This document shows positions 1-6,525 of a DNA stretch of 24,834 nucleotides, in pieces (the first letter of the stretch is position 1; every line of letters starts with the position of its first letter). The notes under the pieces were generated by a model. That model saw nothing but the letters and a program-made list of their open reading frames with translations. It was not told the DNA's origin and searched no databases. The stretch is from a virus (Duplodnaviria > Heunggongvirae > Uroviricota > Caudoviricetes). Made by a program: the position numbers and the translations under genes. Location: positions 1-24,834 of the IMG/VR virus record IMGVR_UViG_2563366939_000004, one strand, 5' to 3'.

Positions 1-786
1 AGTGGTATCAGCCATATAAAGCTGCCCCGTTCCCTCACCGCAGCACTTCGGGCAATCCGGATTGGGTATGGCGTTATCAACAAAGCCGAGGCCTCCATAT
101 TCCGGCTCGGGTTTACCATCTCTGGAGGCCTGTGCCGCAGCCTTATCGAATTCTGCAATATCACGCCACTGGTAGAGATGATTCTCGCCCCAGCAATAAC
201 GGCAGTTAACACGGCGAAATTGTGCCAACTGATTGGGGTCGGCCTGGACAATGGCCATCAACTGGCTCACCAGTAAATCCAGGTCTGCGGTATAGCGTTT
301 CTGGTACTGATTGCGGAAGTAGCTGATAGCACGATAAACCCTGGCATTTCTAAGCATACGGCTGGCGTTGCTGTTAGCTGTCGCACCTTGCCCCTCATAA
401 CCAGCCAGTCGGTATGCCTCTGTCGGCTTTTTCCCCTGAGCAACCAACATGGCGAATTTTGCCTGCTGGTCAGAAATACCGAATTCATCGGGGCAGAACG
501 AAATTTCTTCCGTGTCCCCCTCAATCAGGAGTGCATCGGATACAGCCTTTTTTTTCTGAGATTTTCCGTTCTGCCTTTGCGCAGTCTGCGCAGTTTTTTT
601 TCGCGCACTTTTTTGCGCAGTTTTGCGCATTTCTTTCTGCGCATTTTTCGGAGTTTTTTTGATGTAACGACGGGCTGTTGCGTAGTTCAGTCCCCTTGCT
701 TCACACCATGCCACCGGAGATATACCGGAGCGGGTGTATTCAGCAATATACTCCTGCTGCAACGCCCCCCAGTCCGGTCTGCTCAT
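1..786 (-). CDS. Phage DNA-packaging protein, terminase-small-subunit-like (N-terminal HTH, Lys/Ala-rich linker, Cys-rich C-region); 5' part only, runs off window start
   Basis: Hand translation from ATG at 786 gives uninterrupted frame to position 1 (MSRPDWGALQQEYIAEYTRSGISPVAWCEARGLNYATARRYIKK...NCRYCWGENH...PDCPKCCGEG); not in ORF track because no stop in window. Position directly after lysis genes is where lambdoid packaging genes sit. Function assignment is inference. Confidence 0.4.
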   Translation of the reverse strand, partial: MSRPDWGALQQEYIAEYTRSGISPVAWCEARGLNYATARRYIKKTPKNAQKEMRKTAQKSARKKTAQTAQRQNGKSQKKKAVSDALLIEGDTEEISFCPDEFGISDQQAKFAMLVAQGKKPTEAYRLAGYEGQGATANSNASRMLRNARVYRAISYFRNQYQKRYTADLDLLVSQLMAIVQADPNQLAQFRRVNCRYCWGENHLYQWRDIAEFDKAAAQASRDGKPEPEYGGLGFVDNAIPNPDCPKCCGEGTGQLYMADTT

Positions 787-789
787 CAG

Positions 790-1041
790 TTAGTCCTGAT
801 TTTTATCCACCCTGAGTAGTTCGCGCAGAGCAAAGGCATCCCCTTTTCTGGCAAGCTTAAACAATGCCGCTCGTAACTCGGCTTCACCTTTCGCTCTGCC
901 CTTACGGATGGCCGCATAAAAATCTGTCATTGCTTCCCGATTTTCTTTCAGTCGGTTCAGATCAACATCCAGAACGTCAGCGATTTGTTGTGCAGTCATC
1001 CGGCACGCTGCCAGAGACTCGACTTTCGAATACGGAATCAT
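790..1041 (-). CDS. Small HTH-like phage protein, resembles K-12 Rac YnaK from memory; start uncertain (alternative ATG at 999)
   Basis: 83-aa ORF (MIPYSKVESLAACRMTAQQIADVLDVDLNRLKENREAM...), stop 4 nt before terS-like ATG; overlaps upstream gene by 65 nt if long start is used. Confidence 0.5.
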   Translation of the reverse strand: MIPYSKVESLAACRMTAQQIADVLDVDLNRLKENREAMTDFYAAIRKGRAKGEAELRAALFKLARKGDAFALRELLRVDKNQD

Positions 1042-1909
1042 TTGTCACCCCCATTGATATGCAGGGTGTCTTCTTCCTGTATTTTTCGTGAAGGATTTTT
1101 ACTGCAGCGTTGTTCCAGGTGACCTGATGGTGAATGCGTTTATGGCTGGCACCCATCAGTGAGATTTTTACGCACGACGGCGCATACATGACGGAGTAAA
1201 AACTTTTAACGTAGGTTCCGGAATCCAGATACAGCTCGGTCATTCCGCCGCTGTTTTTCTGCGTCTGTTTCTGCCCTAACTGGACAGCACCGATCGTCAT
1301 AAACAATTCACCACAGCGACCGAGATTCGTGTACGTATTCACATCCTCGTTAATGCGCCCCATGAATGAGAACGGTCGATCAACCGAACAGATAAAGCTG
1401 TTCATTGCCTTGCGTTTCACCCACGAAGCATGGCCGCCATTGTCACCAAGAAAATCCCCGCCCTGCGACATAGCGATGGAAAGCGCGGGTATTGATTCGT
1501 AATACGCCAGCATTTCAGAAAGGATCGCATCCAGTTTCCTTATCGGGAAATAGGCCTGGTCATAGTTGCGATCCACCCGAAACTGGAACTCGTGATAATC
1601 ATCATCGAACTGAATGAAGTATTTACACCCGACCAGTTTTGCCAGGTCGAAACAGGCATTACGGGCGTAAAAAATTGAGCGGCGGTCACCAAAATTATCG
1701 GCTTCGTCAAAACGACTGGCAATATCGGCTTTGGAAAATACCAGCACCTGTTCACCAAATTCAGCCATGTACTGATGCCGTGTCTTATCTTCATCATCAA
1801 CAACGATAAAAATTTTCCCGGTATAGCCAGCACGACGCAACGTCCGGTAAGTCAGAACTTTGTCCGGTCGCCCGTGAGTCAGAATAAAGGCGCAAAAATC
1901 ATCACGCAT
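977..1909 (-). CDS. Uncharacterised 310-aa protein; motifs suggest a GT-A-fold nucleotide-sugar transferase-like enzyme (IFIVVDDEDK ... FIQFDDDYHEF); no PP-loop, no TM segments
   Basis: ORF with GGAGG RBS 5 nt upstream of ATG; start overlaps stop of upstream ParB-like gene by 8 nt (ATGCGTGA) indicating translational coupling. Fold assignment is motif-based inference only. Confidence 0.6.
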   Translation of the reverse strand: MRDDFCAFILTHGRPDKVLTYRTLRRAGYTGKIFIVVDDEDKTRHQYMAEFGEQVLVFSKADIASRFDEADNFGDRRSIFYARNACFDLAKLVGCKYFIQFDDDYHEFQFRVDRNYDQAYFPIRKLDAILSEMLAYYESIPALSIAMSQGGDFLGDNGGHASWVKRKAMNSFICSVDRPFSFMGRINEDVNTYTNLGRCGELFMTIGAVQLGQKQTQKNSGGMTELYLDSGTYVKSFYSVMYAPSCVKISLMGASHKRIHHQVTWNNAAVKILHEKYRKKTPCISMGVTNDSVFESRVSGSVPDDCTTNR

Positions 1910-2690
1910 ATTCCTCCTCCCCGCTATGCATGATCGCCACCATGCGCTGCGTCATTCGGACAAATCCATTTTCAATAGCCTGCTGATAATCAATGATCAC
2001 CAGCGCCGACTCCTCGAAAAGGCACTGAATTTCAGCGGGGGCATGAGCGTAATAGTCCGCAATTCTGCTGAAATTAAACACCGTGTGACGTTCTGCCGCA
2101 CACAGGAGGAATTTCTCAATATCAGGATCAAGGGACGCCGAACGTATCCGGCTGATCAGCTCCTGAGTTTTCGTATCGTCGTACAGTTCACTGATATCCG
2201 GTTTACCGCCCGACGGCTCATAAACAGGCGTATCAATTTTCGTCGTATACGGCTCCTCCTTATTTCCTGTACCGGGCAAAACATCCGTCAACAGTTCATC
2301 AATTTCTGTCGGGCCGAAGCCTGTCAGGGAGACATCAAAATCAGCATTGATTAGGTCCGACAGCTCCATCCGCAATAGATCTTCATCCCAGCCAGCATTC
2401 ATCGGTAGGCGATTATCTGCCAGGCGGTACGCCTTTTTCTGCTCATCCGTCAGGCCAGACAGAACAATGACCGGAACAGAATCCATTTTGAGCATTTCAG
2501 CCGCCATAACACGACCGTGACCCGCAATAATTTCGCCCTTTTCGTCAATCAGCACCGGATTAGTCCAGCCGAATTGCTTAATACTTTCTACCAGTTGTGC
2601 CACCTGCTCAGTACTGTGCGTCCTGGCGTTGTGCGCATACGGTGACAATTCTTGTAATGGGCGATAGACTATCTTTAATTTCTCGCTCAT
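1902..2690 (-). CDS. ParB/Srx-like nuclease-domain protein (262 aa)
   Basis: N-terminal ParB-N-like region (KIVYRPLQELSPYAHNARTHS...VLIDEKGEIIAGHGRVMAA); acidic C-terminal half; first gene of a two-gene cassette. Confidence 0.65.
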   Translation of the reverse strand: MSEKLKIVYRPLQELSPYAHNARTHSTEQVAQLVESIKQFGWTNPVLIDEKGEIIAGHGRVMAAEMLKMDSVPVIVLSGLTDEQKKAYRLADNRLPMNAGWDEDLLRMELSDLINADFDVSLTGFGPTEIDELLTDVLPGTGNKEEPYTTKIDTPVYEPSGGKPDISELYDDTKTQELISRIRSASLDPDIEKFLLCAAERHTVFNFSRIADYYAHAPAEIQCLFEESALVIIDYQQAIENGFVRMTQRMVAIMHSGEEEYA

Positions 2691-2827: not shown

Positions 2828-4285
2828 TTAGGAGCGCCAAAAAAAACCTGAAAACAATATAATAACAGGATAAATTTCAAGGCGACCAAGAATCATAGCT
2901 ATGCACATTAAATATTTTGCAATGTCATTAAGCACTCCGAATGACGATGCAGTAGCCCCAAAACCTAATCCCATATTATTAATACATGCAGCCACTGTTG
3001 CAAATGATGTAAGAAAATCATATCCCATACCATTTAACACCAGTATAAAAAACACCGTGAAGAGAGTATAAAGAAAAAAGAAACTCCATACAGACCTCAT
3101 TACACGATCTGTAACTATCTTCCCTCCTACATTTACACTCAACAACGCTCTGGGATGAGAAAGCTGATTTATCTCGTGTTTGCTTTGTTTGAAAAGTATA
3201 AGAAATCGAAGTGACTTAATTCCACCACAAGTTGAACCTATACATCCCCCAAAGAAACTTGACAACAGCAAAAACACTATCGTGTGCGTGGGCCAGTTTG
3301 CATAATCCTGCGTAGCTAAACCATTATCAGTGAGCATGGAGCTGGCAAGAAAAAACGAATGAATAAAACTTCCATGCAAGTCATACATACCTATATGCCA
3401 GACCTGGAAAGAGGTAACAATGATCACCCCTAAGGCTATTAACAGAAAGAAACGAAGTTCAATATCTCTGATTAAAGGTTTTATCGTTTTCCTGCTAATA
3501 ACAATATACCAAAGAGTGAAGTTGAAAGCCGATAGCAGGGAAAAAGAACCAGCCACCAGCTCAACCAAATAGTTATTAAAATATCCGATACTCTCGCTAT
3601 GAGTTGAGAAACCACCAAGCGAAACTGTGGAAATCCCGTGACAAATAGCATCAAACAAAGGCATTCCTGCAAGTCTATAACAGACAATACAAGCAATACC
3701 TAATAAAGAATAAGTTATCCACAGTGTCCGTGACGTATCGGCCAGGCGGGGAGTGAGTTTGTCATCCTTAAATGGCCCCGGCATTTCTGACTGATAAAGC
3801 TTTGCACCACCAATACCCAATAATGGCAATACAGCAACCGCCAGAACAATAACTCCTAAACCACCTATAAAATTTAACTGTGACCGATAGTACAAATATG
3901 CCCGAGGTAATGAACTAACATCATCAATTACAGTTGCTCCTGTTGTTGTTATTCCAGAAACCCCTTCAAACAGAGCATCAATGAACGTTAAATTAAGTTC
4001 TGAGTCAATCCATAAAGGGAATGCACTAATAACAGAAAACAAAATCCAAAACATTACAATTATAATAAACCCATCACGGGTACGTAATTGAATGCCAGAT
4101 TTCTTAGTTGTATACCACGCTCCGCCACCAATGCAAAAAAATATAACGAAAGTTATAAAGAAAACGAACAGGCTTTTTTCTTTATAAAACAATGCTACAA
4201 CCATTGGTGGCAACATTGAAAGACTATAGAGCCAAACCAGGAACCCACACATATGAGTAACAACTCTTACATGAGATGTATTCAT
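2828..4285 (-). CDS. trkG: TrkG, Trk-system K+ uptake membrane protein (485 aa from ATG at 4285; ORF-track start is an upstream TTG)
   Basis: Polytopic membrane protein starting MNTSHVRVVTHMCGFLVWLYSL..., matches my recollection of the K-12 Rac-encoded TrkG; strongly AT-rich relative to flanking DNA. Confidence 0.85.
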   Translation of the reverse strand: MNTSHVRVVTHMCGFLVWLYSLSMLPPMVVALFYKEKSLFVFFITFVIFFCIGGGAWYTTKKSGIQLRTRDGFIIIVMFWILFSVISAFPLWIDSELNLTFIDALFEGVSGITTTGATVIDDVSSLPRAYLYYRSQLNFIGGLGVIVLAVAVLPLLGIGGAKLYQSEMPGPFKDDKLTPRLADTSRTLWITYSLLGIACIVCYRLAGMPLFDAICHGISTVSLGGFSTHSESIGYFNNYLVELVAGSFSLLSAFNFTLWYIVISRKTIKPLIRDIELRFFLLIALGVIIVTSFQVWHIGMYDLHGSFIHSFFLASSMLTDNGLATQDYANWPTHTIVFLLLSSFFGGCIGSTCGGIKSLRFLILFKQSKHEINQLSHPRALLSVNVGGKIVTDRVMRSVWSFFFLYTLFTVFFILVLNGMGYDFLTSFATVAACINNMGLGFGATASSFGVLNDIAKYLMCIAMILGRLEIYPVIILFSGFFWRS

Positions 4286-4422
4286 ATCTAAATATTCTTT
4301 CAATTATAACCACCTTGCTGCAATATTATGATTATACTGTATAAAATTTAACCCCTCTTAGATCTTACTTCACTGTTCCTTATGAAACAATCATCAAAAT
4401 GAATCATATTGTAGTTAAGATT

Positions 4423-6371: not shown

Positions 6372-6446
<75 letters not shown>

Positions 6447-6449
6447 ATA

Positions 6450-6525
<76 letters not shown>

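Follow-up and report, generated by a model that had tools for sequence, protein, structure and literature searches.

Phage SPP1 has a pac site that partly coincides with terS and in which short repeats are accompanied by A-tracts. In phage lambda, cosB carries several R-sites for the N-terminal winged helix-turn-helix (HTH) of gpNu1, and adjoins the site of action of the large subunit. The pac site of P1 is 161 bp long and includes seven hexamers; synonymous mutation of these hexamers lowers the titre about ninefold (PMC10028697). Very few phages have a known pac site, and even that of ES18 is still unknown (PMC11260489). Within the searchable literature, which leaves older subscription papers outside its scope, we found no earlier description of the arrays presented below, nor of a pac site for Rac-type or Stx-converting phages.

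We analyzed a stretch of 24,834 nucleotides from a virus of the Caudoviricetes (IMG/VR record IMGVR_UViG_2563366939_000004, positions 1 to 24,834), which we call the window. A first-pass annotation had singled out hexamer repeats inside its terS-like gene as a candidate pac site resembling that of P1. The array is selected as DNA, is linked to an N-terminal HTH homologous to that of P1 PacA and covaries with residue 39 of this domain. Judging from sequence, the six hexamers are probably the cognate sites of the TerS N-terminal HTH and would jointly constitute the part of a headful pac site that is recognized.

Layout of the terS gene and its prophage

The terS gene lies on the minus strand, with its ATG at 786-784, and is truncated where the window ends on the left. 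The complete gene is present in an E. coli prophage of 99.9% identity (L003:8691-9785); it measures 1095 nt (364 aa) and is annotated as terminase small subunit. The window contains the following parts of TerS:

658-786, minus strand: N-terminal PacA-like HTH of TerS, aa 1-43 (AF2 model, hhalign, PHROG cross-matches and covariation of residue 39)
664-684, minus strand: predicted helix 3, aa 35-41 (AF2 model)
670-672, minus strand: Arg39 codon, in predicted helix 3
487-657, minus strand: Lys/Ala/Gln-rich linker, aa 44-100, whose DNA bears the array (translation)
1-486, minus strand: Terminase_2 core bearing a CxxC...CxxC insertion, truncated at the left end of the window (Pfam PF03592)

The AF2 model of TerS was built from a single sequence (pLDDT 75), because homologue searches gave no diverse alignment: the 46-aa HTH retrieved short fragments only, and the 262-aa fragment only proteins at least 84% identical to it. 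The model predicts three helices (6-20, 24-31 and 35-41, with pLDDT of about 85 over the helices), the third of which contains residue 39. A Foldseek comparison of this model with the PDB returned only non-significant HTH matches (E > 0.7), and a PDB sequence search with TerS and TerL returned nothing usable. No Pfam domain matches the linker (aa 44-100). The Terminase_2 core starts at about aa 105; a full-length homologue scores 36.1 bits against PF03592, above the gathering cutoff of 26.1, and the truncated TerS of the window falls just under this cutoff with 25.9 bits.

In the L003 prophage, terS is followed by genes for a 433-aa large terminase (TerL), a DUF4055 portal, a MuF-like protein and a P22-type capsid protein. 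The TerL is T4-type by Pfam (Terminase_6N/6C) and 44-52% identical to the TerL of Guernseyvirinae (Jersey, K1G), a group in which phage Sciku has been called headful by PhageTerm (PMC6753286). These similarities support, though indirectly, a large terminase and head module of the headful type.

Beyond terS, the window consists of the left arm of a Rac-type prophage, which is integrated beside ttcA. It encodes an integrase, RecE/RecT, a repressor, a Cro-like protein, replication proteins, a Q-like antiterminator, two tRNAs, a holin, a lysozyme, Rz, TrkG, a ParB_N protein and a TAGT-like glycosyltransferase. Close relatives of this prophage are present in 905 of 5,426 complete E. coli genomes (about 17%). 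The tRNA genes, tRNA-Gly(tcc) and tRNA-Thr(tgt), are located upstream of the lysis cassette (6372-6525, minus strand). The potassium-transporter gene trkG (2828-4303, minus strand) is inserted cargo with the lysis cassette on one side and the ParB_N gene on the other, an arrangement shared with K-12 Rac. Between trkG and terS, we observe the gene for the ParB_N-domain protein (1902-2690, minus strand) and an ORF of 83 aa (790-1041, minus strand). The TET-associated-glycosyltransferase-like protein, whose RefSeq name is GREB1-related, is encoded at 977-1909 (minus strand); no TET/JBP dioxygenase or DNA methyltransferase partner for this gene was found in the window.

A hexamer array in the linker-coding DNA

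The (T/C)GCGCA copies reported at intervals of 9-15 bp in the linker-coding part of terS are indeed present. Positions 578-643 hold five TGCGCA and one CGCGCA within 66 bp, all inside terS; on the coding strand, the copies are found at terS nt 144, 158, 168, 180 (TGCGCG), 195 and 204. We number the sites in the direction of the gene; no strand is assigned to them:

578-643, no strand assigned: six-hexamer array, proposed TerS-binding element of pac (terS coding nt 144-209)
638-643, no strand assigned: site 1, TGCGCA, codons aaT-GCG-CAg (N-A-Q)
624-629, no strand assigned: site 2, TGCGCA in another reading frame, aTG-CGC-Aaa (M-R-K)
614-619, no strand assigned: site 3, TGCGCA (T-A-Q)
602-607, no strand assigned: site 4, degenerate, TGCGCG on the coding strand and CGCGCA on the plus strand (S-A-R)
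587-592, no strand assigned: site 5, TGCGCA (T-A-Q)
578-583, no strand assigned: site 6, TGCGCA (T-A-Q)

The window as a whole contains 13 TGCGCA against 10.4 expected, an unremarkable number, so that the signal resides in clustering: five of the 13 are packed into these 66 bp. Two other properties attributed to the array hold in part. Each hexamer had been described as followed by a T-run, which on the plus strand is true of five of the six, the copy at 578 being followed by GTC and the next hexamer. Phasing at about one helical turn is only approximate: successive hexamers are 9, 15, 12, 10 and 14 bp apart (mean 12 bp), and family-wide spacing ranges from 7 to 16 bp with modes at 7, 9, 12 and 14 bp and no strict helical repeat.

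Searches around the array for further elements gave negative results. No second hexamer cluster, even at one mismatch, was found in the window's terS and the 300 nt upstream of it (1100 nt). The IHF consensus WATCAANNNNTTR has no match with at most one mismatch in the window's part of terS or the 800 bp upstream, the nearest match being at 1613. We also considered whether a phage methyltransferase might govern the GCGC core, as Dam does in P1; this idea finds no support, as the window yielded no gene for a DNA methyltransferase. The linker region of terS also contains two A8 runs on the coding strand (window 548-555 and 594-601), which are prone to slippage in transcription or replication.

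E. coli alleles of terS carry four to six perfect hexamers. Point losses (TGTGCA, TGCGTA, TGCGCG, TGCACA) affect one or two sites, and a deletion has removed two sites from one allele. Site 4, degenerate in the window, reads TGCGCA without mismatch (S-A-Q) in the majority of other alleles, and site 6 reads TGCACA in the commonest 95%-identity allele. This natural loss of hexamers suggests that the sites are individually dispensable, or that some of the prophages are decaying.

A separate case is that of Rac-SA53 (L001:4600-4660), in which an annotated gpO-terS deletion fusion joins exactly at the array. Similarity to the window ends at 634, and the leftover hexamers are partly degraded (TTCGCA, TGCGCT, TGCCCA). 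We may speculate that a deletion end-point at the proposed pac reflects a break made by terminase.

Probable kinship with the P1 pac site

The resemblance to the P1 hexamer repeats, initially put forward as a likeness of pattern, is one of homology and not analogy: three methods match the TerS HTH to PacA. Alignment by hhalign of nine TerS family members with P1 and D6 PacA yields a probability of 97.7% (E 1.4e-12, 47 columns). Against the PacA-family PHROG (phrog_1711), the TerS of the window obtains an E of 2.4e-4 and its Klebsiella homologue 2.4e-5; reciprocally, PacA matches phrog_370 at 1.9e-4, a family that the window TerS matches at 1e-16. Finally, a tblastn search with the HTH retrieves pacA of the P1-like phage D6 (E 9e-4). 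P1 PacA itself starts with the homologous domain (…FNLNPNTARRYLRA). The P1 repeats inside pacA are the target of the PacA/PacB pacase.

In the P1 record, TGATCA/G is found at pacA nt 194, 201, 213, 228 and again at 324, 336, 347 and 375, in two reading frames, and these two groups (nt 194-233 and 324-380) surround the annotated cleavage at nt ~276-284 and the IHF site. The two loci therefore have much in common. In both, the array is inside the small-terminase gene, just 3' of the segment encoding the homologous N-terminal HTH, and is formed by several 6-bp TGNNCA palindromes, spaced irregularly by 7-15 bp, falling in more than one reading frame and maintained at synonymous positions. However, the core is TGCGCA here and TGATCA in P1, and since our array has no GATC, control by Dam methylation is not possible. 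We observe one cluster of six hexamers where P1 has 4 + 3 flanking the cut, and no IHF consensus where P1 has an IHF site between its clusters. The TerS body, a Terminase_2, is unrelated to the C-terminal part of PacA, and the host element is a lambdoid Rac-type prophage rather than a P1-like plasmid prophage. The locus is best read as a P1-type pac recognition element, with a different hexamer (no GATC and no IHF consensus) and a simpler, one-cluster layout.

The evidence for cognate HTH and sites is silent on the purpose of binding, and the sites are inside a transcribed and translated gene. TerS might thus bind the array for regulation, through autoregulation of terS/terL or by blocking transcription of the late operon, and not for packaging. 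We consider this unlikely. In P1, experiments have defined the homologous arrangement as a pac site. The protein belongs to the small terminases, which are known to act in recognition of pac or cos, and no promoter-like site was found overlapping the array.

Two other systems, SPP1/SF6 and lambda, show both likenesses and differences. As in the SPP1/SF6 pac (pacL-pacC-pacR), where the recognizing protein, G1P, is of the Terminase_2 family, TerS here has a Terminase_2 domain (PF03592), and the repeats coincide with terS. Unlike in the SPP1 type, an additional N-terminal HTH, absent from SPP1-type proteins, goes with the repeats, and Terminase_2 relatives lacking the HTH carry no such array. As in lambda cosB, there are repeated sites for the N-terminal HTH of a small terminase. 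Packaging in lambda, however, proceeds by cos cutting, which leaves defined cohesive ends, and involves an IHF site as well as three R sites of 16 bp that lie outside the sequence coding for Nu1, whereas the phage studied here has a TerL that is, by similarity, of the T4-type headful kind, and 6-bp units inside terS.

The array and the HTH domain in related phages

Full-length homologues of TerS, with 34-44% identity, are found in Klebsiella, Yersinia and other phages. The first-pass annotation had called for a comparison of the repeats in related prophages, and in this comparison the array is kept at the same position despite protein identity of about 38%. The genes of relatives with this level of protein identity carry 6-9 copies, in all three frames. 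In the Klebsiella prophage terS, six TGCGCA occupy nt 138-201, again in all three frames (TAQ, PAQ, LRT, CAE). Klebsiella sequences (L005:1860-1905, L006, L008) also possess a second cluster of three TGCGCA within nt 348-403 (nt 360-403 in the genes just described), some 160-200 nt past the main array. Both clusters exceed the expectation from codon usage (6 against 0.54 for the main array, 3 against 0.32 for the second). This 6 + 3 layout is reminiscent of the 4 + 3 of P1, and its second cluster is missing from the E. coli terS. In Yersinia, terS has four or five TGCGAAT at the corresponding position.

Arrays also follow the HTH in different protein contexts. TGCGCA occurs right after the HTH in a different TerS body in PhiR12_3 (seven copies) and in Stx phage GER2 (five copies), and the terS genes of Providencia PSTCR3 and Klebsiella RothD have a TGCGAAT array in the same place. 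In all, an array after the HTH is seen in bodies that are otherwise unrelated: E. coli/Klebsiella phrog_51, RothD/PSTCR3, the Stx-phage type, Pmp11 and P1 PacA. Conversely, the terS genes of F116, Bcep22 and Skulduggery, which have the Terminase_2/zinc core without the HTH, contain 0-1 TGCGCA and no 5' array. Present with the HTH and absent without it, the array appears to travel with the HTH. We count 256 phage records sharing this HTH, mostly Stx phages.

Some relatives depart from this pattern. In four Shewanella/Psychrosphaera sequences with the ARRYIK helix (L229, L232, L246, L292) and in L313, a set whose helices are ARRYIK or AKRYIK, no repeated motif was detected in the 300 nt after the HTH, so that the recognition site, if any, must be elsewhere. 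The Lys39-type sequence L158 (IMG/VR 2846979917_000004) has two arrays, a proximal one of five TGCGAA/TTCGCA (nt 131-187) and a distal one of five TGCGCA (nt 198-294). This double array looks like a relic of cassette exchange or a site of dual specificity.

Covariation of the motif with residue 39

We collected the family from IMG/VR with a degenerate DNA pattern (W27-C28...A38-[R/K]39-R-Y-I-K) and an alignment-based scan, obtaining 151 distinct sequences. TGCGCA is dominant in 125 of the 126 genes with Arg39 (ARRYIK; mean 6.2 copies per 280 nt, against 0.06 TGCGAA) and TGCGAA/TTCGCA (TGCGAAT) in 23 of the 24 with Lys39 (AKRYIK; mean 5.9 copies, against 0.4 TGCGCA). As the sequences are related, independent events are fewer than these raw counts imply: the number of separate switches is small, with three or four backgrounds at the least rather than some 150. 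An independent set, a scan of one genome per species spanning Enterobacterales, Vibrionaceae, Aeromonas and Pasteurellaceae, gave the same picture: at least four TGCGCA are present in 63 of 68 Arg39 genes and at least four TGCGAA in 14 of 15 Lys39 genes, with zero cross-class cases. Site logos read aaaAcTGCGCA(A/G)A for the Arg class and aaaAnTGCGAAT for the Lys class, whose TGCGAAT unit is non-palindromic and is found in one orientation in 74% of cases.

Lys-type HTHs differ from the nearest Arg-type HTHs by 1-3 other substitutions in at least three enterobacterial backgrounds, and a divergent Pasteurellaceae group adds one more. With near-identical Lys and Arg HTHs in several backgrounds, the switch must have happened, or have been exchanged, several times. 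The motif thus covaries with residue 39 of the recognition helix.

A third class, from a single lineage, is formed by the 933W-type Stx phages. Their TerS has the helix NTARTRIK and an array of four or five YGATCAT, encoding the peptide IDHEIDHKTDHEIDH. The 933W TerS (L0112) resembles the proteins discussed above in that its HTH family and Stx-type body match those of GER2 and PhiR12_3, which have TGCGCA arrays, and in that its array directly follows the HTH; it differs in its helix and in its unit, which contains a Dam site. The same position of the array is observed in the L0112 locus (L337:1501-2307) and in L339-L377, each YGATCAT unit holding a Dam GATC as in P1. In one 933W-type allele, the fifth unit results from a 12-bp duplication.

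Many dimeric proteins could recognize a palindrome as short as TGCGCA, and the hexamers might be bound by a host factor or by another phage or satellite protein, with only an indirect link to the TerS HTH. Yet the motif tracks one residue of one TerS helix in several backgrounds and in hosts from Escherichia to Pasteurellaceae/Vibrionaceae, which a host factor does not predict, and arrays are lacking where the HTH is absent. We therefore regard another binder as quite improbable.

The existence of a Lys39 class also bears on a structural reading of the repeats. A terminator scan flags three weak candidates with a hairpin and a T-run on the plus strand (577-593, 614-629 and 624-643), as though the palindromes and T-runs were terminators of antisense (plus-strand) transcription or formed some other RNA or DNA structure. 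The stems, however, are only 6-7 bp long and arise automatically from neighboring palindromes beside Lys (AAA) codons. The Lys39 class keeps its array with the non-palindromic TGCGAAT and generally has no such hairpins, for which reason we view the hairpins as a by-product; what is conserved is the sequence of the motif and not its pairing potential. A terminator function is very unlikely on these grounds.

Selection on the DNA rather than the peptide

Several observations indicate that the TGCGCA array of the window is selected as DNA, not as peptide. We resampled synonymous codons of aa 43-83, keeping the peptide fixed and taking codon usage from eight late genes. Resampled sequences contain 0.62 +/- 0.71 TGCGCA, with a maximum of 4; five are observed, a number reached by none of 20,000 resamples. 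The same codon test applied to P1 pac as a positive control gives 8 copies against 2.9 expected (5e-5). Codon choice is also specific to the array: all four xAQ of the linker are written xxT-GCG-CAx, and the other three xAQ of terS use GCT or GCA for Ala.

Reading frames lead to the same conclusion. At site 2 (624-629), the first residue is M, V or L across E. coli alleles with the hexamer unchanged. The motif occurs in at least two reading frames in 112 of 126 Arg39-type genes, and copies in other frames account for 185 of 786 family-wide. Linker peptides differ by class, with TAQ/NAQ/LRK/CAK, SAN/IAN, IDH or NCE. The outcome named beforehand as contrary to a pac site, a conserved protein whose repeats are not conserved as DNA, comes out inverted: hexamers are conserved, and the linker peptide is not conserved across the TerS family. 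As for the suggestion that the pattern may serve two purposes, the peptide looks subordinate to the DNA rather than being its equal.

The repeats might instead be a by-product of the repetitive Lys/Ala/Gln (TAQK) peptide through replication slippage, with no DNA function; the linker is of low complexity, and four of the six copies share one frame, in which they encode xAQ. This reading is scarcely credible. The peptide calls for 0.6 copies with no resample reaching five, copies occur in other frames (one here, besides the family-wide ones), spacings of 9, 15, 12, 10 and 14 bp follow no constant tandem period, and the peptides are entirely different from one motif class to the next. We reject a purely peptide-level origin on the results for resampled codons and for reading frames.

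We have here a clear case of an overlapping DNA signal dictating the amino-acid sequence of a protein linker. In Pasteurellaceae (Pasteurella phage Pmp11, L015:1201-1920, and L102, L113, L193), an array of eight or nine CTGCGAA forces a Cys/Glu-rich linker, KCEQNCETAN…ENCETNCESNCETAK (NCE/KCE). This linker is the clearest case of a peptide dictated by a DNA motif.

Proposed mechanism and significance

Selection at the DNA level, homology to PacA and a TerL and head module of presumed headful type, by similarity, all support the candidate pac site inside terS. We propose that a TerS oligomer would present several N-terminal HTHs on flexible Lys-rich tethers, and that these would read, along concatemeric phage DNA, (C)TGCGCA(A/G)A units placed every 9-15 bp; the 3' part of each unit would be contacted by residue 39 in the recognition helix. 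Bound TerS would then recruit the T4-type large terminase, which may cut somewhere nearby and so set off successive rounds of headful packaging. What we infer, from sequence comparison, is binding itself, avidity through oligomers, the start of packaging, and where and in what direction the cut occurs.

Since the array lies in the DNA of a tolerant linker, directly beside the DNA encoding the HTH, domain and target may be inherited or exchanged as one specificity cassette. It is about as likely as not that a large family of temperate phages of enterobacteria, Vibrio, Aeromonas and Pasteurellaceae uses such a modular cassette, a PacA-like HTH followed by its own array of 6-7 bp targets, in which Arg39 or Lys39 would switch between TGCGCA and TGCGAAT and ARTRIK would specify the Dam-methylatable YGATCAT in 933W. 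On this reading, the family would include Rac-type prophages (about 17% of complete E. coli genomes) and Stx-converting phages.

Should the array be a pac element, it would allow the start of packaging to be studied through sequence in a prophage that 905 of 5,426 complete E. coli genomes contain and, by extension, in the 256 phage records that share the HTH, mostly Stx phages. It would establish a mechanistic link of Rac-type and Stx phages to P1, would predict which prophages and satellites package each other's DNA and would offer, with R39K and a change of TGCGCA to TGCGAAT, a simple system for studying how small terminases read DNA. If the cassette reading is true, pac specificity, cross-packaging among co-resident prophages and satellites, and transduction hot spots would become predictable from sequence, and specificity could be re-engineered by one substitution together with synonymous recoding.
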